A DNA stretch of 64,000 nt from Thermodesulfobacteriota bacterium. Its GTDB lineage: Bacteria > Desulfobacterota > BSN033 > UBA1163. The stretch is taken from the NCBI GenBank assembly GCA_041947025.1, contig JBHGBJ010000005.1:26382-90381 (forward strand), read 5' to 3'. The notes under the pieces are model-generated. The model did no database searches. It had not been told where the DNA came from and saw nothing but the letters and a program-made list of their open reading frames with translations. The translations under genes were made by a program, and so were the position numbers. Positions within the stretch are counted from its first letter, which is position 1. Each line of letters opens with the position of its first letter. Shown here piece after piece: positions 5,846 to 40,484 of this stretch.

Positions 5846-6874
5846 CTACTTGAACAGGATATCCTTCATCTTGGCTGTCATCGCAGCGTCCATCTTGAAG
5901 ATCCCGGCCACCGCTTTTTCAAGCTCTTCGCTGGAGACAGGAGCCAGATCCAATTTCGCCTTTTCCGTCTCCGCCAGGAATTCCTTGTCTTTCAGGGTTT
6001 CCTGGAAGGCTTTGCTCAAAATCTGCTCCCGATCCTCGGGAGTGCCCGGAGGCAGGACAAAGGGCCGGGCGAATATGCTTGGGCTATGGATGCCCAGCTC
6101 GACCAATTGGCGCGCCTCAGCCGTCTTTGCATAATTGATTGCGAGTGGAACTTTGGGGAGATCCGGAAACGCCTTAGGCACTGTCTGAAGCACGACAATG
6201 ACGTCGCCCGTCTCAATCGCCTTACGCCAGGTCACCCTCATCGACTGCCATCCCCAGGAAGTCCCTGCCAGCTCTCCGCTCTCACAAGCCAGACGGATAT
6301 CCGCGGTCCCTTTGTAGCCGGAGACCAGTTGAATGGGCAGATTGAGCGCCACCTTCACCAGCCGAATGACGTTATCCGGCGCATAGGCACCCGGCCCGAC
6401 ACCACCCATCTTGACTGGCGTTTTGGAAGCCATCCACTTTTCTATACTGGTAATGCCACTTGCCTTCGTAAAAGCAATGGCACAATCTTCTGTCACCGCA
6501 GCCCCGATGAACTGGAATTTTCTCGCATCAAACTCGATCCCCTGCTCTCCCAAAACCTGGTTAAAAAACAGTCCCCCGTTGAAATGGCCGATCGTAAGGC
6601 CGTCAGGCTTGGCCACCTTGTAAAGGTGGTTGGCCGAGATCAGACTTCCGGCCCCGGTCATATTCTCAACGATGATGGCGGGATTCCCCGGGATATGTCT
6701 GCCCATATGCCGGGAAAGAACCCTGGCATAGGTATCGTAGCCGCCCCCGGCGGAATAGCCCACGATGATCCGGATCGTCCTGCCTTCATAAAAGGGCGCA
6801 GCGGCAAAGGCAGGAGAAGAAATGAGAATAAGTCCGACGAAGATACCTCCTAACAAAAAACATTTCTTGCCCAT
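5846..6874 (-). CDS. tctC: TctC/Bug-family periplasmic substrate-binding protein
   Basis: Start moved to ATG 6874 (MGKKCFLLGGIFVGLILISSPAFAAAPFYEG...), which has AAAAGGAGG upstream. Signal peptide followed by the Bug-family core (IRIIVGYSAGGGYDTYARVL). Confidence 0.85.
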   Translation of the reverse strand: MGKKCFLLGGIFVGLILISSPAFAAAPFYEGRTIRIIVGYSAGGGYDTYARVLSRHMGRHIPGNPAIIVENMTGAGSLISANHLYKVAKPDGLTIGHFNGGLFFNQVLGEQGIEFDARKFQFIGAAVTEDCAIAFTKASGITSIEKWMASKTPVKMGGVGPGAYAPDNVIRLVKVALNLPIQLVSGYKGTADIRLACESGELAGTSWGWQSMRVTWRKAIETGDVIVVLQTVPKAFPDLPKVPLAINYAKTAEARQLVELGIHSPSIFARPFVLPPGTPEDREQILSKAFQETLKDKEFLAETEKAKLDLAPVSSEELEKAVAGIFKMDAAMTAKMKDILFK

Positions 6875-7029
6875 ACGTTCCTCCTTTTGATTGAAGTTTC
6901 TTTGTAAGCGCTGAAGAACGACAACGTGTTCGCTCAAATTTCCAGGTGATTTCATCAATATATCAAAAAAAAAAGTTTTGCAACAAATTTTTTGAAAACT
7001 CAGGGAATGATCCAAAGAACCTAATAAAG

Positions 7030-8888: not shown

Positions 8889-9908
8889 ATGAAACGACGT
8901 CTGTCTATGTGCTCTTATTGTTTGTTAATCAGTTTCTTTCTTCTCACACTGCTGATCCTTCCTTCGAAGCCCCAGGCAGCTCCCTACTATGAGGGCAAGG
9001 TTATGAAGATTATCGTCGGCGTTTCGCCGGGAGGGGGATTTGATATCGTCGCCAGAATTCTCGCAAGGCATCTCCCCAAATATATCCCCGGAAAACCTAC
9101 GATCATCGTCGAGAATATGGTCGGGGCGAGCACGATGATCGCCGCCAATCATGTCTATAACATCGCCAAACCCGATGGCCTCACCATTGCGACCGTTTTC
9201 CGTTCCCTTCTCGTCGCACAATTAATGAAGGTACAGGGGATGAGGTTTGATCTGAGGAAATTCTCGTGGGTCGGGGGATCGGGTCCGGAGGCTTATCTCT
9301 TTACGATTCGCTCGGATCTTCCTTACAAGACTTATGAAGAGCTGATCAAGTCCAAGAATCAAATCGTTCTGGGAGCAACCGGCGCGACGGATGCAACCTT
9401 TGTTTTTCCCACCCTTCTCAAAGTTTACACAGGGTTAAATATAAAGATTGCGATCTATCCTGCAAGCCCGGAAGTGATGCTTGCGATCGAGAGAAAAGAG
9501 GTGGATGGCAGGGCAGGATCGTTCAATTCACTCAAGCCCTTCATTGATCGAGGATTGGTGCGTCCCCTACTTCGCGGAAGGGTCTCCCAGAAAGGGGCCG
9601 AGAACCTGCCCGTGGATGAGAAATTTGCCTCCGATAAAATGGGCCAATCCATAATGGCAATGTATTCCGCAGGAAACCTGATCGGCCGGCCCTATGTCGC
9701 CCCGCCGGGGACACCTGCCGAGGTGATGAATATTTTAAGGAAGGCTTTTGCTGAGGTCGGTAAGGACCCCGAGTTCGTAAATGATGTCGAAAAAAATAAG
9801 ACGGACTTTGATTATGTTCCCGCAGACGAGTGCCTCAAGGTGGTCAATTTCACGCTCAATCAGCCTGAAGAGATCGTCAAAGAATTCGGAAAGTACGTCA
9901 AGTTTTGA
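8889..9908 (+). CDS. tctC: TctC/Bug-family periplasmic substrate-binding protein (second copy)
   Basis: Start moved to ATG 8889 (MKRRLSMCSYCLLISFFLLTLLILPSKPQAAPYYEG...) after AAAGGAGG. Bug-family core KIIVGVSPGGGFDIVARIL. Confidence 0.85.
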   Translation: MKRRLSMCSYCLLISFFLLTLLILPSKPQAAPYYEGKVMKIIVGVSPGGGFDIVARILARHLPKYIPGKPTIIVENMVGASTMIAANHVYNIAKPDGLTIATVFRSLLVAQLMKVQGMRFDLRKFSWVGGSGPEAYLFTIRSDLPYKTYEELIKSKNQIVLGATGATDATFVFPTLLKVYTGLNIKIAIYPASPEVMLAIERKEVDGRAGSFNSLKPFIDRGLVRPLLRGRVSQKGAENLPVDEKFASDKMGQSIMAMYSAGNLIGRPYVAPPGTPAEVMNILRKAFAEVGKDPEFVNDVEKNKTDFDYVPADECLKVVNFTLNQPEEIVKEFGKYVKF

Positions 9909-9957
9909 AATCGAGGATTATTAAAAATCCTCATTATACGATTCGCACGGAAACTTA

Positions 9958-33235: not shown

Positions 33236-33664
33236 TTAATTTCCACTTTCCTTCAATAGGGCCACCAATCTGCTGTAATCTTTCTGCTCGATGTACTGAA
33301 ACTCCAACCCGTACCGGTGTTCGCTTTGCATGCCGCCATTGGCCATATCACTCCAGACCACCTTTGCAATCGTTTCAATAGATCCTATCTCCAGGCCTTT
33401 CAAATAGAAGATTTCAATCTTCAGTACGGCCCCGATCTCCATTCGCTCCGGTAGATAGACGAGGATCCCCCCACCGCTCGCATTGGCCACGATCCCACCG
33501 AATAATTCTTTATCATCGACCCGGGAATAACTCAACGGTAGGTCAACTGCAAACCTGGCGTGCTTCCTTCGGTCAACCGCGAGAACACCCATTTTGGACT
33601 GAGTTTTAGGCCCATGGTTCTCTTTCAACCTATTCATACGTACCTTGATAAGTTCCACTGACAA
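33236..33664 (-). CDS. PilZ domain protein
   Basis: RRKHARF ... (D/N)xSxxG-type pattern: DRRKHARFAVDLPLSY...GIVANASGGGILV. Confidence 0.7.
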   Translation of the reverse strand: MSVELIKVRMNRLKENHGPKTQSKMGVLAVDRRKHARFAVDLPLSYSRVDDKELFGGIVANASGGGILVYLPERMEIGAVLKIEIFYLKGLEIGSIETIAKVVWSDMANGGMQSEHRYGLEFQYIEQKDYSRLVALLKESGN

Positions 33665-33938
33665 TCAGAGCCATTGGTCCGATTTTTAAGCTCCTAAACA
33701 TAAGCAAAAATAGTACCAAATCAGGCTACTTAGCTACTTTTTATAGAATTTCCCAAATGACTAAGGAAGTCGCAGGATTTGGCTGACTCAGAAAGGAAAG
33801 AAACTTAATTTCTGATTACGAAAAGGCTCTAGTTTCGGGGATAACTTCTCTTCGGTAGATACTTTTTAAAAATCTATGAAATCTTTTCGCCCCATCAGGT
33901 TCGTTCCGATTCTATCGTACTGCAATCTCAAAAGGGTT

Positions 33939-34484
33939 TCATTGTTTGATCCATTCTTGCTTTGCTTTAAAAATCTCAGCCTCCTCTGGAATTTTGTTCT
34001 CCAGCATTTGTTTGGCTTCCTCAACCTCTCTCTTATATCGATCCATCTCGCTCTGGATCTTGTCTCTTTCTTTTCTGAGACTTATCCTTTCAATCGAATT
34101 CTTTGATCCATTAAACTTTTCCGTCAACTCATTATATTTAACTCTTAACCGATCCACCTTATCCTGAGACTCTCTCAACTTCTTGCTCCATTCTTCGACC
34201 CGACCTTTCCAATAATCTTCCCCCCTTCCCAACTGATCCCGGTAGGTTTCTCCCGTCGGTTTCTTCACTTTCTTCTCAGGTGAGGTCTCGGCATCTATCT
34301 TTGTCTCGGCTTCTTCTTCTTCGGATGTTCCGAGTCTCTCCACCTTCGGTCGATATTTTTCTGGAATTTGAATGAAGTCGTCGGTGAAGTGGACTCCCCC
34401 TTTTTCATCCACCCACTTGTAAACCTCTCCGTAAGAAAATTCTGCCAGGGACAAGATCAAAAATATGAACAAAATTCTTTTCAT
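33939..34484 (-). CDS. DUF4124-domain exported protein with coiled-coil tail
   Basis: Signal peptide followed by EVYKWVDEKGGVHFTD (DUF4124 signature). The rest is E/K-rich and helical. Confidence 0.7.
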   Translation of the reverse strand: MKRILFIFLILSLAEFSYGEVYKWVDEKGGVHFTDDFIQIPEKYRPKVERLGTSEEEEAETKIDAETSPEKKVKKPTGETYRDQLGRGEDYWKGRVEEWSKKLRESQDKVDRLRVKYNELTEKFNGSKNSIERISLRKERDKIQSEMDRYKREVEEAKQMLENKIPEEAEIFKAKQEWIKQ

Positions 34485-34779: not shown

Positions 34780-36444
34780 TTAACCTCTATTCATTGGAGA
34801 AAAGTATTCGCTGATGCTACCGAGGACGATGTGGGGAATATCTTCTTTCTTTTTGACCGTAAAGATACTGATATTCTTCTTCTTCTCAACCGCCTTTTCG
34901 AACCTTGCCGCATGGGGGTTCTCTCCAATGTGTACCGCTGTGATCCGGTTCTTTATCCTTCCAAAAAAGTTGATCAACACCTCCAAATTGGTGATCTTCA
35001 TGTCGGTGATGATGAAGAGGTCAAGGCTTTTTCTTCCTTGGATCAAAGGGATCAAATCGTCCAGTTCCAGGGCCGTACCTCCTCCGAAATACTTGCAAAG
35101 AACCCTGTAGATATCTTCCTTTTCATCGGTGTAGTCCAGGATGTCTTTCCCGCCCATGGGCGCATCACTAAAATTGTAGATGGCTACTTTTGAATCATTC
35201 CGGAGATAGGCATTGGCCGCACAGGCTGCTCCCAGAACTGCATAGGAGAGATTTTTTCGAGGGTTGATCATGCTTCCCGAAGAGTCAATCGCGATTAAAC
35301 AATCGGGAGCGCTCTCCATCTTTCCCCTCCCCTGGCCCATCTTCTTTTTCCAGATCTGAGTCAACCCTGGCATGATCTTCCCAAAGCTCGTCCAGATATC
35401 CACATCCTGGTAAGGGGCTCCGATCTCCCAGGGGGCATGGGAGTGCGGATGGAGGGAACCTTTCTTCTCCAAAGGCATCTTCTTCAAAGGCATGGAGTAA
35501 CTCTCAGCCAACTTCATATAGAAAAGGATATCGGCATCGATCGGCTGGGATCGGCCTCGTCCCATCGCCTCTTCAACGCCATAACCCGATTCCTTTAACT
35601 CATCCGAAAAATCCTCGATCAGCTCCTTGAATTCAGACAGGGCCATCTTTTTCTTGACGTAATCCCTCAATCCCTGGTCGATCTCCTCATTGGAATAATG
35701 GGTCAGATCATGGTCTCCTTGGGGGTTGGAACTCCCCTTCCCACCGCCCTCTGCGTCTTCTTCCTGTTCTTCAAAGAAGAGGGGCTTGAGAGATCGGGCA
35801 AACTTCTGAATACTCTCCGGCCATCGAGATCGATCCAAGTAAGGGATCCGTGCAAGTCTCCGGACAACCGCCTCATGTCTCTTTCCTTCTGTTGGAGAGA
35901 GGGAAACGCCCATGTCAATCCCCCAGATCTTCTGGTAAAGGGAAGCAATCACTTCTCCAACCATCCCTTTTTTCAGGCTTCGATGCAGTTCGGGGATCTC
36001 CGTCGACTTCTTCTTCACACAATGCGTGTCCGCGATCACGTCGATGAAGGTGTTCGCCACTTGTTTGGCCAAGGCTTTGTCGCCCATCACCTTTTTGGCT
36101 TCGGCATACAACAGGAGATGGGTATGAAAATCCCACGGGCAAAAGGTATAATGGGTGATCCCGTGATCGAGAAGAGCTTCGACCACCTGTTTCTCCGTCA
36201 TTTTCTCTTTCATTTGAGAAACAAAGACGGGGTTGACCCTCATCTGTTTCTGCTTCATCTCCAACCCGACGCCCTCGTTCTGCGCGCCGGGCCCGTCGCC
36301 GGAATCGGCGATCTTCCCGGCTTTGGGCACCGGGAGTTCCGGATAGTAATGCTTCTTCTTCAGCCGGGGCCAGACTTCATCAATGATGGCCTGCAAATTC
36401 TGCTCTTCCATTGTTGATGCTTTAGGTCCTTGAAAGTTCTTCAT
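34780..36444 (-). CDS. VWA (MIDAS) domain protein with His-rich N-terminal domain
   Basis: 554 aa. C-terminal VWA domain with DxSxS (LIAIDSSGSM), a later GGGTAL Thr and ITDM Asp. N-terminal domain contains LLDHGITHYTFCPWDFHTHL. Starts 9 nt after the stop of the previous gene. Confidence 0.8.
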   Translation of the reverse strand: MKNFQGPKASTMEEQNLQAIIDEVWPRLKKKHYYPELPVPKAGKIADSGDGPGAQNEGVGLEMKQKQMRVNPVFVSQMKEKMTEKQVVEALLDHGITHYTFCPWDFHTHLLLYAEAKKVMGDKALAKQVANTFIDVIADTHCVKKKSTEIPELHRSLKKGMVGEVIASLYQKIWGIDMGVSLSPTEGKRHEAVVRRLARIPYLDRSRWPESIQKFARSLKPLFFEEQEEDAEGGGKGSSNPQGDHDLTHYSNEEIDQGLRDYVKKKMALSEFKELIEDFSDELKESGYGVEEAMGRGRSQPIDADILFYMKLAESYSMPLKKMPLEKKGSLHPHSHAPWEIGAPYQDVDIWTSFGKIMPGLTQIWKKKMGQGRGKMESAPDCLIAIDSSGSMINPRKNLSYAVLGAACAANAYLRNDSKVAIYNFSDAPMGGKDILDYTDEKEDIYRVLCKYFGGGTALELDDLIPLIQGRKSLDLFIITDMKITNLEVLINFFGRIKNRITAVHIGENPHAARFEKAVEKKKNISIFTVKKKEDIPHIVLGSISEYFSPMNRG

Positions 36445-36453
36445 CTCTGGCTC

Positions 36454-37218
36454 TCAGTAATAGAGATTCGGGTGATGGGCCTTTCCGGGGTAAACCATCT
36501 TATCCCTCTCGAAGACTTTCCCTTCCACAATATTTCCCAGGCCTCTCACTCTTCCTCCCACATAGATCTCGCCGCCCATCATCCATTCACCCGTATGGAG
36601 ACCGATGTTCTTGCTGACCAGGATCTTCCCGCTTCTCATGCCTGCCCCCGTCCAGTTCTTTGCGTTCCCTTCGACTGCCAATTCGCCTCCTTCGAGGCCA
36701 ATGCCAGTGAAATCGCCCGTATCTCCTTCAATCATAAGCCGTTTTCCTTTGGGAAGGCGAAAGCCAAGCAGATTGATCTCCGTTTTCAGTTCGGTGAGTT
36801 TTAAGACGATCTCTTCTGCCTTCACATAGTTGCACAGAGCAGAAATATAGATCCCTGCAGGCCCCGGAATAAGGTACGGGATTTTCTGGGTGTTCTCAAA
36901 GGCAAAGCAAAAATCCTCAATATCCTCTGCGGTATAATCGATCTCCTTGATATATTTCTCCGCCACCTCGTAAGCCTTGATGATCGTATTGTACTGGACC
37001 ATCCAGACAAGTTCCTTCGCCTCTTCCTCCAAAAGCTTTTCATAACCCCATCGGATCCGTCCCATCACCTCCTCGGTAGATTGAACGATTGCGTCGAGGG
37101 GAAGATCATTCTTTTCCACGGCAAAGGCACGAAATTCTTCAAAGGGATTCTTCGTGATCCGGCCCATTTTGTCTCCTGACACGATGGGCCCTCTTTTCTC
37201 TTCAGGGGAATTCTTCAT
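36454..37218 (-). CDS. GXGXG-motif beta-helix protein (GltB domain 3 / FwdC-like)
   Basis: 254 aa. C-terminal GKRLMIEGDTGDFTGIGLEGGELAVEGNAKNWTGAGMRSGKILVSKNIGLHTGEWMMGGEIYVGGRV shows the repeated GxxGxxxG turns of that fold. The N-terminal ~150 aa is helical and unassigned. Confidence 0.7.
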   Translation of the reverse strand: MKNSPEEKRGPIVSGDKMGRITKNPFEEFRAFAVEKNDLPLDAIVQSTEEVMGRIRWGYEKLLEEEAKELVWMVQYNTIIKAYEVAEKYIKEIDYTAEDIEDFCFAFENTQKIPYLIPGPAGIYISALCNYVKAEEIVLKLTELKTEINLLGFRLPKGKRLMIEGDTGDFTGIGLEGGELAVEGNAKNWTGAGMRSGKILVSKNIGLHTGEWMMGGEIYVGGRVRGLGNIVEGKVFERDKMVYPGKAHHPNLYY

Positions 37219-37257
37219 CGTTCAACTCGCTCTGTTACAGGTGGCGCTCTTCTCGGT

Positions 37258-38640
37258 TCAGACGTGTCGGGTTTGGATGTCTTTTCTGATCTCAGCGTAG
37301 AGAGGATGATCTCCTTCCAAGGGTTCCAAGGACTCTCCCTGGAAAATTTTTGATCCAACAGCCAAGGCATCTTTCAAGTGCTCGTTCTGTTCTCCATATC
37401 GCTGAGAGACCGTTTTCACCGCCTCTTTTGCGAGGAAGATAGGAAATGGATCATCCCTTTTGGCCCCTTCCCTTTGGGAAAGGATCTCTTCTTTCCATTG
37501 GACGCGGTGAGCTAAGGTATAGGGGATAATGGATTTGACATGCTCAATATCGATTTCAGAGTCTTCCATGAGCCATGCGATTCCCTGGGCGAATTGCTTG
37601 ATAGAGATCGGGAGCCGGTTGGAAGCACAATTCTTGATTTCACGGCAGAGATATCCGGTATAGTGACATCCTTCTTCACAATTCTCCACGATCCGCTTCT
37701 GTCCGTAACGCTCGCAAAAAGAAAATTCTGCAAGAAGCATCCGGGTGAAGGCACTCGCATCGACGTCCATATCCAATGTTTCCATTTGGGCCCGAATCTG
37801 TTCACGATCTCTCCTCTGAAGGGGTTTGACGCCCACCGCATCGGCAAGATATTGGCCAAAGGCATTGCAGACCTCTTCCATCTTTGGAATCTTCTTTAAA
37901 TAAGGAACCTTGGATTTTAGGATCCGATGCAACTCCCGTTCATATTTCGGGTGTCTTAAGACTTGATCCTTTCTTCTGGTCTTCCCGATCATAAAGGAGA
38001 GGTTCGCCCCCGGATATCTCGATTCCACCATCACGTCAAATCGGTCCATCAGGGGAGGGATGACCGTGCTCGTTCCTCCGTCCGAGTAGTTTGAAGTGGC
38101 AAAGAGACAGTATTCGTCGTTGATCACCATCTCATTGAGGTATTCCCAATTCCCTCGATCCACTCCGTCCAGGATCATGCTCTGTTTGGTTTCTGGAAGC
38201 CGGTTGATCTCATCCACAATCTTCACAGGGATTTGGGAAAAATTGGTCCAAACCACATCCTCTTCTCCACGGTTCAATTTCCCCAAATCCGGTCTGCCGA
38301 TAATCTTTTCCTCTGTCTGTTCCGGGTGGCCTGATACTTCACTACCCCAAATCACGCCCACCGGAAATTGGTAGATCAAGGAACAGACAAACTCCGCTGA
38401 GGTGGTCTTCCCCAATCCCGGTTCTCCAATAATTAACTCCTTCCCTTTCTGAAGTCCGGTGATCAGGCTGAAGAGGATCGCCGAGTTAAATCGTTCCCCC
38501 TTAATTTCGACATCTGGACGGTTAAAGTAAAGATGGTTGCTAATGAACTCATAGATCTCCATCACCTGTTTCTGGTATCCGTTCTTTTCCACGCCTGCTG
38601 TCCTTTCCCTTTCTTCCGATTCTTCTGGGTGCCCACTCAT
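37258..38640 (-). CDS. MoxR-class AAA+ ATPase with Cys-rich C-terminal region
   Basis: 460 aa. Walker A GEPGLGKT, Walker B KIVDEINR, sensor ATSN, PPLMDRFD arginine-finger region. Also C-x11-C-x3-C-x6-C-x5-C at aa 309-338. Confidence 0.8.
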   Translation of the reverse strand: MSGHPEESEERERTAGVEKNGYQKQVMEIYEFISNHLYFNRPDVEIKGERFNSAILFSLITGLQKGKELIIGEPGLGKTTSAEFVCSLIYQFPVGVIWGSEVSGHPEQTEEKIIGRPDLGKLNRGEEDVVWTNFSQIPVKIVDEINRLPETKQSMILDGVDRGNWEYLNEMVINDEYCLFATSNYSDGGTSTVIPPLMDRFDVMVESRYPGANLSFMIGKTRRKDQVLRHPKYERELHRILKSKVPYLKKIPKMEEVCNAFGQYLADAVGVKPLQRRDREQIRAQMETLDMDVDASAFTRMLLAEFSFCERYGQKRIVENCEEGCHYTGYLCREIKNCASNRLPISIKQFAQGIAWLMEDSEIDIEHVKSIIPYTLAHRVQWKEEILSQREGAKRDDPFPIFLAKEAVKTVSQRYGEQNEHLKDALAVGSKIFQGESLEPLEGDHPLYAEIRKDIQTRHV

Positions 38641-38722: not shown

Positions 38723-40135
38723 CTAAACGTTTGTCTCAAAGGCCTCGAGATATCCCTCTGAGGTGAGGGCTCGCTGGGCCGCCCGGTTGAGCGCCCGGTC
38801 GTACCGGTGGGTGGAGGTATAGACCCGGCAGATGGCGACCTTCGCGGGGATATATTGAAACAATCGTCTGAGAGGCTCCCTCGAGATTCTCCTCGATCCC
38901 GGATCGAAAATCAGCAGGGTCGTTCCCTCGGACTCGTGCCACGGATTCAGGGGCCGCGGGTCATGATGAGCCATGTCGATGTGGAATTCAATCTCCCTCA
39001 CCTTCTTGGGTAAAAAGGCCTCCATCCTCTGTTTGACCTCTTGGGGTGTCAGGAAGCTCGGCCGCCCCAGCTCGATTTCGCGCAGGGTCAACTTCTCTTC
39101 AAAGACACTGCTCCACCTCAACTTTCTCGAAAGAATATCAGACCACTTCTTTCCTAACCGCCTCTCGGTCGCTGAGCCTGACTCTTTCCACTCCAAAACC
39201 TTTTCCATCAGAAACCAGTCTGTGAGCGCGAGGTAACGGTCTATCTCTTCCAGCGGATGAAAGGGACAGAGGATCTCCATCGTCTCTCTGAAAATCTCCT
39301 GAAGTTGAAGATCGATGGCACGGGTGGTTCGGTGGTAATACACATTGGAATAAAGGTAGAGCCGCGCGTTGAGAAACATGGCCAGCGCGTCCAGCCCCCT
39401 CTTATCCAGAATCAGCCCCTCCTTGCGGTAAGAGGTATAGTGTAGGAGTCGTCTCCAATCGATCGGCCCGATCGAGACGCCTGTCATATACGCGTCCCGC
39501 AATACGTAGTCAATATTGTCAAATGTGAAGATGCCGCGAAAGAGCTGCTGCAGGAGGTTCAACCATCTCGGGTGTTTCCGGTCTTCTCTCCCTGAGGGTC
39601 TTTTGATCAGAAAGGCAACCTGCTCTGGATCCAGAACCTCTCCCTCCTTAAAGGGTCCGTGGGGACTCCGACGGATTCTTTTCAGAAGGGGAGAAATTCT
39701 TTTTCGGATGATCTGCTGGCCGATCTCTTCGTGATTGGTTTTGAAGCGGGAGAGGTATTGCTCATCGAAAAAATGGCAGAAGGGGCCATGCCCGATATCA
39801 TGCAGGAGTCCGGCGAGCCGAAGGAGTTCTTCGATATAAAAAGGGGAGGGAAGGCCTGGGGACTCAACCCTGGCCAGGGACGGATAAAGCTGTTCCGCGA
39901 AGGCCCCGGCAACATGGAGTGTCCCAAGGGAGTGCTGAAAACGGGTATGTTCTGCCGAGGGGTAAACCCAGCGAGCGCTTTGAAGCTGGAAGACGCGCCG
40001 AAGCCGCTGAACCCAAGGGGTATCGATCACGTCTCGTTCCGTCTTCTCCCCTTCCACGCGGTCGGTCATCAGAATGTAGTGGTAGAGAGGGTCTGCGATC
40101 AATCCAGTTCCTTGAATCTCTTCCACGCCTCCCAT
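38723..40135 (-). CDS. HD-domain phosphohydrolase, SAMHD1/dGTPase-like
   Basis: RFQHSLGTLHVAG ... LLHDIGHGPFCHFFDE ... FDNIDYVLRDAYMTG are the motifs of dNTP triphosphohydrolase-type HD proteins. 470 aa. Confidence 0.8.
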   Translation of the reverse strand: MGGVEEIQGTGLIADPLYHYILMTDRVEGEKTERDVIDTPWVQRLRRVFQLQSARWVYPSAEHTRFQHSLGTLHVAGAFAEQLYPSLARVESPGLPSPFYIEELLRLAGLLHDIGHGPFCHFFDEQYLSRFKTNHEEIGQQIIRKRISPLLKRIRRSPHGPFKEGEVLDPEQVAFLIKRPSGREDRKHPRWLNLLQQLFRGIFTFDNIDYVLRDAYMTGVSIGPIDWRRLLHYTSYRKEGLILDKRGLDALAMFLNARLYLYSNVYYHRTTRAIDLQLQEIFRETMEILCPFHPLEEIDRYLALTDWFLMEKVLEWKESGSATERRLGKKWSDILSRKLRWSSVFEEKLTLREIELGRPSFLTPQEVKQRMEAFLPKKVREIEFHIDMAHHDPRPLNPWHESEGTTLLIFDPGSRRISREPLRRLFQYIPAKVAICRVYTSTHRYDRALNRAAQRALTSEGYLEAFETNV

Positions 40136-40253: not shown

Positions 40254-40484
40254 TCAAGGCACCTTGCCAGGAAGTTCGCGTTGCTCTTCCTTTTTCTTCG
40301 GATCAATAAATTTCACTTTTGAGGCGGCCACCTCCCTCAATGCAGTCACAATCGGCCGATTATCGGCTTCGACCAATGGCTTCGCTCCCTTCATGATCAT
40401 CTTTGCTCTTCTTGCACCCAAGATAACCAGCTCAAACCGACTCTCTACCTTTTTCAGACAATCCTCAACGGTAATTCTTGCCAT
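40254..40484 (-). CDS. rpoZ: DNA-directed RNA polymerase subunit omega
   Basis: [30 protein letters not shown]. Confidence 0.9.

Follow-up and report, generated by a model that had tools for sequence, protein, structure and literature searches.

The window analysed here is a 64,000-nucleotide stretch of a Thermodesulfobacteriota genome (contig JBHGBJ010000005.1). [quoted passage not shown] We read the trio as one dedicated machine, a new branch of the MoxR/VWA ATP-driven remodelling chaperones, in which the beta-helix protein is a partner marked by a short N-terminal peptide tag; in our judgement this reading has about an even chance of being correct. Its features fit core cellular machinery better than they fit defence or assistance to an adjacent enzyme, and it occurs in archaea and in a single large assemblage of anaerobic, uncultured bacteria. 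The evidence that carries the reading is the co-conservation of the three genes, gene fusion, the identities of the domains, the conservation of their motifs, the portability of the tag, and a gene neighbourhood free of client enzymes and of mobile context.

The original prediction, made from the letters of the window, had described the cassette as MoxR AAA+, GXGXG and VWA/MIDAS genes. Its coordinates, the intergenic gaps (39 nt between the ATPase and GXGXG genes, 9 nt between the GXGXG and VWA genes) and all quoted motifs were confirmed. Each of the three proteins has hundreds of homologues with 75–93% identity in database searches, and the trio therefore consists of genuine genes, not chance open reading frames (ORFs). 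The homologues come from bins of uncultured Thermodesulfobacteriota, Syntrophaceae or 'Deltaproteobacteria' and are labelled as hypothetical, 'MoxR-like ATPase', 'AAA family ATPase' or 'Mg-chelatase subunit ChlI'; two stray labels occur in addition for the middle protein.

Relatives were scanned for in one genome per GTDB species, and 349 genomes encode a relative of the ATPase. The first family-wide alignment was too divergent to search loci with. Gene order was analysed in 81 Thermodesulfobacteriota loci: the 80 best loci of the GTDB scan and one retrieved on its own. Wherever the contig extends far enough, all 81 have the genes tightly packed in the order ATPase–GXGXG–VWA. The trio does travel together, and its co-conservation is strict. 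Median identity in 34 genomes is 80% for the ATPase, 81% for the GXGXG protein and 74% for the VWA protein, compared with 78% for Dxs, 74% for TlyA, 69% for YicC and 63% for Gmk in the same genomes. The trio is conserved to the level of Dxs, above that of Gmk, YicC or TlyA, and is under housekeeping-level constraint. Its flanks are housekeeping genes that differ by sub-clade (gmk–rpoZ, dxs, Lon, PBP1A, UvrA, KdsB, PyrF, pilins, the Mla operon), and there is stable synteny with gmk, rpoZ, dxs, nusA and infB. Across more than 100 bacterial and archaeal loci no enzyme is a constant neighbour, and neither a metalloenzyme nor a defence island was found beside the trio. The variable housekeeping flanks agree with the expectation that no client enzyme is adjacent, and the possibility that such trios always sit beside one specific enzyme is not borne out. 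Phage, plasmid and IMG/VR viral-contig collections contain no relatives of the trio; two viral-contig matches (L116 and L117) were rejected as generic 317-aa AAA+ proteins without partner genes. The trio is chromosomal and vertically inherited.

The association reaches far beyond the clade of the window. In Archaeoglobales metagenome-assembled genomes (MAGs) the ATPase and the GXGXG protein are fused into a single 620-aa polypeptide, present as four distinct sequences on several contigs, which is followed by an overlapping VWA gene with housekeeping genes around; P0400 is a second ATPase–GXGXG fusion. All three genes are kept in a Deltaproteobacteria MAG locus of 49% identity despite an inserted GGDEF gene. 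Another scan, made with a distant ATPase subgroup (24–33% identical), gave loci of which two, on metagenomic contigs, have archaeal 16S rRNA genes within ~5 kb of the system (L087:1613-3105 and L088:2591-4129). In all 13 of these contigs with enough flank the ATPase is accompanied by tandem GXGXG paralogs, numbering from 1 to 7 or more, and six distinct loci have a VWA homologue. Trm10, SUI1, S8e and rRNA are found in the archaeal flanks. A Woesearchaeota-type locus consists of ATPase, VWA and eleven small tagged paralogs. There (L125:7429-13529, also L126) the eleven small genes overlap one another after the ATPase and VWA genes, and 10 of the 11 products start with a [DE][IL]ARQFxR-type peptide. 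Two of them have clear GXGXG coils and a further two give weak matches; the others are short domains with no match to family models or in precomputed Pfam annotation.

The ATPase has the Walker A, Walker B, sensor-1, arginine-finger and sensor-2-bearing lid elements expected of a MoxR-clade member. Over 30 diverse members no change occurs at G72, G75, K78, T79, D143, N184, R200 or R342, and E144 hardly varies. D199-R200 lie at the position expected for the arginine finger and may have this role. The signature GHPEQTEEKIIGRPDLG, which served as the search pattern for the family, is a 17-residue conserved segment between Walker A and Walker B, and for this reason it would correspond to the helix-2 insert of MoxR-clade ATPases. 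Among Pfam models, PF07728 (AAA_5) matches the window ATPase with 23.1 bits against a cut-off of 22 (E-value 8e-5); PF17863 (AAA_lid_2) reaches 20.1 bits against 22.7 in the window ATPase and exceeds the cut-off in homologues. In PDB the family profile matches the MoxR structure 2r44 best (E 1e-13) and ChlI/BchI next (E 1e-9 to 2e-8), which places the ATPase in the MoxR/chelatase branch. PF07726 (AAA_3, MoxR proper) gives 14.9 bits against a cut-off of 27, and the window ATPase has no match to bpMoxR (PF20030) or to any NCBIfam family. Judged by these profiles, the ATPase belongs to none of the named MoxR subfamilies (MoxR proper, RavA, CbbQ/NorQ/GvpN, bpMoxR). An exhaustive search against 1.84 billion representatives bounded its family to 444 clusters at 50% identity, with E-values up to 1e-3 and full-length alignment down to ~25% identity. 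Signatures of the family are GExGxGKTT, GHPEQTEEKxxGRPDLG, DExNR, DRFD, SxR, PYxLxHR and a C-terminal DHP.

The ~230-aa C-terminal region of the ATPase had been considered unusual. Part of it is an ordinary AAA lid (PF17863, residues 339-384, with sensor-2 S340/R342). Ahead of the lid lie a variable helical insert and a Cys cluster (C309-x11-C321-x3-C325-H-x5-C332-x5-C338) and, behind it, a helical extension terminating in the conserved DHP motif. The Cys cluster is lineage-specific: some 22 of the 115 full-length representatives of the family have it, and an archaeal subgroup has SxDxHD in its place. Probably the cluster is a structural metal site.

The C-terminal half of the middle protein is matched by PF01493 (E 2e-5), TIGR03122 (E 2e-19) and FwdC chains in PDB (E 2e-10 to 1e-8), and an archaeal family member scores 54.5 bits with PF01493, above the cut-off of 32.5. 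It was conceivable that the middle protein is a known enzyme subunit. This is not what we find: its TIGR03122 score is below the FwdC equivalog cut-off (69.6 vs 130.65 bits) and covers the repeat region alone, no Fwd genes adjoin its gene in any locus examined, and in Archaeoglobales it is fused to the ATPase. In the AlphaFold2 (AF2) model the beta-helix half is confident, with a predicted local distance difference test score (pLDDT) of about 80, and the remainder is not; a Foldseek search with this model gave weak matches, FwdC at E 0.27.

All partner proteins have a short Phe-centred peptide near the N-terminus, a conserved acidic residue ~15 residues further on (PLD in the window) and then a helical domain with the consensus YTAxDIExF ... 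aGxFLSALIN. No Pfam or NCBIfam family covers this N-terminal half. The bacterial form of the tag is NPF[ED][ED]F, and NPF..F is invariant in the bacterial clade. The tag is at the very N-terminus (MKNPF) in the clade with 60–67% identity and behind a variable ~22-aa leader in the clade of the window. In the archaeal arrays it takes the forms SKRFGKYK, ARQFxR or NPFxG, and leaders of 5–45 residues stand ahead of it. A hidden Markov model (HMM) of the tag alone found one further protein among ~3,600 ORFs (E 4e-5), a non-beta-helix protein encoded in locus L083 next to the VWA gene. Since the tag sits there on a different domain, the N-terminal peptide behaves like a portable tag. It and a tagged paralog lie on either side of the L083 VWA gene (L083:10887-11753 and L083:14020-15156); the two are 49% identical and share the non-beta-helix domain; one is without a Pfam match and the other without a PDB match. 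Only some of the Woese-type paralogs retain the beta-helix, so that tag and helical domain form the constant core of the partner.

The VWA protein consists of a helical N-terminal domain with a degenerate zincin-like motif, an acidic/Gly linker and a VWA domain. The MIDAS is complete, as had been claimed: D376, S378, S380, T446 and D470 (543-aa numbering) do not vary across 69 sequences, archaeal ones included. VWA_2 matches 29 of 30 members (best E 2e-6), in each case below the gathering score. Taken with 2r44 for the ATPase and FwdC for the middle protein, profile searches bear out the domain assignments of all three proteins. Foldseek top matches of the VWA-protein model, which is of low confidence, are VWA domains only (probability 1.00, template modelling score about 0.55 on the target), including NorD 9qhe_G. 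The linker is probably disordered according to the model, and NorD has a linker at the same position (PMC9976466).

The N-terminal ~360 residues of the VWA protein gave no match when the family profile was compared with PDB or when members were scanned one by one with Pfam. The original prediction had called this domain His-rich. The histidines belong to an HExxH-type (zincin-like) motif, which is degenerate in the window protein: it reads HGITH, and no peptidase is matched in Pfam or PDB. At the aligned position all 64 bacterial-clade members have H[GA]xxH, i.e. the Glu is lost, and archaeal and other distant VWA proteins have HE[IFVTL]xH. Of the 10 distinct non-Thermodesulfobacteriota loci examined, 9 retain HExxH (L083, L085, L087, L088, L100, L118, L121, L125 and L128) and L107 does not. 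H83 and H87 are conserved, and so, in 68 of 69 sequences, is D124, which lies on a predicted helix further along. This pattern suggests that the N-domain is zincin-like, potentially active in archaea and catalytically dead in the clade of the window. Cys91/Cys131 were considered as a bacterial replacement for the lost Glu and rejected, since Archaeoglobales has HExxH plus both cysteines. An archaeal locus without a visible VWA gene encodes, upstream of the ATPase, a 333-aa protein with HEFDH and no Pfam match (L093:1830-2828), which could be a stand-alone zincin-like component.

Positions of the genes and motifs are collected in Table 1, where gene coordinates follow the ORFs. The true start of the ATPase is probably the GTG at V17 (nt 38592), as this gives the length of 444 aa seen in most homologues. 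Similarly, the VWA protein probably starts at M12 (nt 36411), where the database version of the protein begins, and then has 543 aa. Promoter and terminator scans gave no more sites than shuffled sequence. Plus-strand ORFs run antisense across the trio (35698-36417, 239 aa; 37540-37899; and others); they are probably spurious because the minus-strand frames are strongly conserved.

Table 1. Genes and sequence features of the trio, numbered from the first letter of the window.
Feature	Position (nt)	Strand	Remarks
ATPase gene	37258-38640	minus	460-aa ORF
Walker A GEPGLGKTT (res 72-80)	38401-38427	minus	G72, G75, K78, T79 invariant in family
Family signature GHPEQTEEKIIGRPDLG (res 104-120)	38281-38331	minus	most conserved stretch of the ATPase family
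Walker B VDEINR (res 142-147)	38200-38217	minus	D143 invariant; E144, N146, R147 nearly invariant
PPLMDRFD (res 195-202)	38035-38058	minus	D199-R200 conserved; R200 invariant
Cys cluster C309/C321/C325(H326)/C332/C338	37627-37716	minus	inserted just before sensor-2 (S340, R342)
GXGXG protein gene	36454-37218	minus	254-aa ORF
Tag NPFEEF (res 24-29)	37132-37149	minus	after variable ~22-aa leader; N24, P25, F26, F29 invariant in close clade
GXGXG beta-helix coils (res 163-228)	36535-36732	minus	profile matches and AF2 pLDDT about 80
VWA protein gene	34780-36444	minus	554-aa ORF
HGITH (ORF res 94-98; H83/H87 in 543-aa numbering)	36151-36165	minus	HExxH with catalytic Glu replaced by Gly
Linker EEQEEDAEGGGKGSSNPQGDHD	35707-35772	minus	acidic/Gly-rich, poorly conserved; model pLDDT below 35
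MIDAS DxSxS = DSSGS (ORF res 387-391)	35272-35286	minus	D, S, S invariant in 69 sequences
Remaining MIDAS: T457 of GGGT (454-457), D481 of ITDMK (479-483), ORF numbering	34996-35085	minus	

If the trio is a single remodelling machine, the ATPase would supply the force as a ring, a hexamer by analogy to NorQ/NorD. The VWA protein would be the adaptor, with its VWA domain docked on the ATPase ring as in NorQ/NorD, for which mechanistic precedent exists (PMC13036017, PMC9976466). The MIDAS site and the N-terminal zincin-like domain would hold the target. This target, or regulated partner, would be the cytoplasmic beta-helix protein, recognized through the Phe-centred tag (NPFEEF) and the acidic residue ~15 positions on (PLD), and ATP hydrolysis would alter the conformation of the tagged protein or its state of assembly. 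Archaeal loci have a single ATPase next to as many as 11 tagged paralogs, in most cases with a VWA protein whose intact HExxH possibly trims the tag. In the Thermodesulfobacteriota clade of the window the system would be reduced to one partner. With the peptidase Glu lost, we propose that binding and remodelling alone remain there. The ATPase fusion favours a stable association, and the paralog arrays favour multiple clients or adaptors. The partner may be a client, for instance a beta-helix scaffold that assembles by itself, or it may serve as adaptor for some other target.

Several observations weigh against this interpretation. The Archaeoglobales fusion suggests a stable subunit, not a transient client. 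Deep branches occur with no partner nearby, L121 and L128 having ATPase and VWA only and L127 the ATPase alone; the trio association is therefore ancestral and widespread, not universal. The acidic residues within the tag vary (NPFLDF, NPFVRF and NPFFKF in some clades), which makes the MIDAS ligand uncertain. AF2 models are poor (pLDDT 48 for the VWA protein, from a shallow alignment, and 60 for the middle protein), and the zincin-like fold and the helical domain of the partner are consequently putative. The search for a client covered gene neighbourhoods only, so that a client enzyme may be encoded at a distance.

A broader form of the proposal would make the trio part of an ancient tag-directed AAA+/VWA machine of archaea and bacteria. 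The Phe-centred peptide would be a portable address for beta-helix and occasionally other proteins, on which the MoxR-type ring and the zincin/VWA adaptor perform ATP-driven processing, assembly or disassembly. We put this forward tentatively, as possible and rather doubtful.

The alternative that survives best is that the trio is a chaperone for cofactor insertion or enzyme activation of the NorQ/NorD, CbbQ/CbbO and CoxD/E type, with its metalloenzyme client encoded elsewhere and the beta-helix protein acting as specificity adaptor. This is the best-documented role of MoxR/VWA pairs, and the VWA protein shares with NorD the succession of N-domain, disordered linker and VWA domain. Metalloenzyme complexes contain GXGXG beta-helices as structural subunits (FwdC, GltS), His/Cys-rich sites are present in the VWA N-domain and the ATPase, and a CobW-type GTPase is encoded near one locus. 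However, the more than 100 bacterial and archaeal loci share no enzyme neighbour, up to 11 tagged paralogs in one array are hard to fit as adaptors for a single enzyme, and the middle protein stays well under the FwdC equivalog cut-off. We consider a cofactor chaperone unlikely.

Less probable still is that the system serves tag-dependent processing, with the zincin-like domain of the VWA protein cleaving the leader or tag of the partner and the ATPase feeding or releasing partners. The matured beta-helix proteins would then self-assemble into a cytoplasmic scaffold or filament, and the bacterial clade would be a derived form without proteolysis. The HExxH motifs that are intact outside Thermodesulfobacteriota and the leaders before the tag of archaeal paralogs are in line with cleavage, and so is the bacterial clade with 60–67% identity, which lacks the Glu and starts directly at MKNPF. 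As a precedent, the tail system of Acidianus two-tailed virus has a MoxR/VWA pair that is proposed to help a protein which forms filaments (cited in PMC7159879). On the other hand, the clade of the window lacks the Glu and yet keeps the ~22-aa leader, the domain has no peptidase match in Pfam or PDB, the third zinc ligand is putative, and no sign of polymerisation was seen. Proteolytic maturation in archaea is plausible as the ancestral state.

It is very improbable that the trio works in conflict or against phages as a nucleoside triphosphate (NTP)-dependent system of the MoxR-vWA ternary type (Kaur et al. 2020), a context mentioned in the original prediction. Such a system would account for a MoxR and vWA core with a third component; the paralog arrays could be read as diversification, and a dGTPase-like HD gene lies upstream in the window. 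Yet PADLOC defence models give no significant match for the three proteins (best E 0.013), the window ATPase matches neither bpMoxR nor VMAP, and there are no effector domains. Housekeeping-level conservation, the stable synteny described above and the absence from phage, plasmid and IMG/VR collections all speak against it, as does the HD gene, which is missing from 35 of 35 loci at 60–67% identity and from part of the close clade. We give the least credence of all to a class I chelatase-like function (a ChlI/ChlD/ChlH or CobS/CobT/CobN analogue inserting metal into a tetrapyrrole): the ATPase lid region matches ChlI/BchI at E 1e-9 and the acidic linker resembles that of ChlD, but no ChlH/CobN-like large subunit is encoded in the window or related loci, the VWA protein has no AAA-like N-domain, and tetrapyrrole genes are not adjacent.

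Regarding the neighbouring genes, the HD gene (38723-40135, minus strand) encodes 470 aa with PF01966, HD_assoc_2 and weak dGTPase/SAMHD1-like matches, and it is located between rpoZ (40254-40484) and the trio. It is ~78% conserved where it occurs, which is in part of the closest clade only. The idea that it travels with the trio was not upheld, and it was rejected as a fourth component; it looks like a clade-specific insertion. Downstream of the trio, at 33236-34484 on the minus strand, are genes for DUF4124 and PilZ-domain proteins that are syntenic in the close clade, though far less conserved (~57% identity). In 11 loci of one sub-clade (L054, L057, L060-L066, L069, L077) a Lon gene follows the VWA gene directly on the same strand, for example at L057:9944-12289, and after it often comes an ArsA-like ATPase. 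This adjacency draws attention beside a VWA protein with a dead peptidase-like motif, and it may be simple synteny. As it is confined to one sub-clade, we took it as synteny and did not accept Lon as a partner.

Other genes were seen beside deep-branching ATPases. In L121 a 452-aa protein with a Gly-rich hydrophobic segment and no Pfam match is encoded immediately upstream of ATPase and VWA (L121:6630-7988). No GXGXG partner was detected in that clade, and this protein could be a replacement third partner. A NosD-like beta-helix protein of L121 was judged unrelated, having a signal peptide and lying on the opposite strand. In L127 radical SAM genes flank the ATPase (6042-7004 and 8929-9927), and the upstream gene runs 4 nt into the start of the ATPase gene.

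To our knowledge MoxR/VWA pairs are widespread and clients are known for only a handful of them. Here a likely partner is encoded in the operon itself; it bears a tag, is fused to the ATPase in one lineage and is multiplied up to eleven-fold elsewhere. With partner and tag at hand, the question of how MoxR/VWA machines grip their targets can be addressed directly by experiments on three small, soluble proteins. Neither Pfam nor NCBIfam has a family for the ATPase as a whole or for the VWA N-domain. Evolution at the pace of essential housekeeping genes, ATPase relatives in 349 reference species genomes and the lack of family models together point to a substantial piece of unannotated core biology in these organisms. 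If the broader, tag-directed proposal holds, the trio is a previously unrecognised protein-handling system of prokaryotes, with housekeeping importance in a large uncultured Thermodesulfobacteriota clade and several archaeal lineages, and possibly a functional counterpart of midasin-type MIDAS-and-pull mechanisms.

Several known systems resemble the trio in part. MoxR-vWA ternary conflict systems (Kaur, Burroughs, Iyer and Aravind 2020, PMC7159879), in which a metallopeptidase is occasionally fused to the vWA protein, likewise have three components around MoxR and vWA. VMAP, iSTAND and effector modules are all missing from the trio, which does not lie in a defence island or a mobile setting and whose sequences evolve very slowly. 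In the archaeal Acidianus two-tailed virus p618 (MoxR) and p892 (VWA), chaperones of tail development, have been proposed to act on a structural filament-forming protein (cited in PMC7159879). That pair is viral and extracellular; the trio has no matches in viral collections.

The middle protein has the repeated G-x-x-G-x-x-x-G beta-helix coils of FwdC/FmdC and of the glutamate synthase C-terminal domain (PF01493). In contrast to these, it has only about 4-5 coils, scores under the family cut-offs, and carries the tag and helical domain, which are absent from FwdC and GltS, ahead of the coils. Its gene is always beside the ATPase and never beside Fwd or GltS genes. For the tag-directed model midasin (Rea1) with Rsa4/Ytm1 offers a functional analogy. 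Midasin combines an AAA_5-type ATPase with a MIDAS domain; the latter takes hold of a short element, conserved at the substrate N-terminus, and pulls on it. Midasin itself is one giant eukaryotic polypeptide acting on pre-ribosomes, and its likeness to the trio is at the domain level.

The closest likeness is to NorQ/NorD, CbbQ/CbbO, CoxD/CoxE and RavA/ViaA. In these pairs, too, an AAA+ ATPase of the helix-2-insert (MoxR/chelatase) clade adjoins a protein that starts with a specificity domain and, after a disordered linker, ends in a VWA domain with complete MIDAS, and the trio probably shares with them the ring-plus-plug architecture and MIDAS-mediated target binding. Its ATPase differs from theirs in falling outside the named MoxR subfamilies, with the signature GHPEQTEEKxxGRPDLG and the lid insert as features of its own. 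The NorQ/NorD-type pairs have an adjacent client enzyme, and the trio has none; instead it has a constant tagged GXGXG third partner, sometimes fused to the ATPase, and an HExxH-type motif in the VWA N-domain. Full-text searches turned up no publication connecting MoxR to GXGXG or FwdC proteins, and the eLife survey of MoxR-vWA ternary systems (PMC7159879) does not mention such a partner, in keeping with the earlier impression that no equivalent has been described. New within the MoxR/VWA chaperone type are an ATPase subfamily, a VWA N-domain and a tagged partner family.

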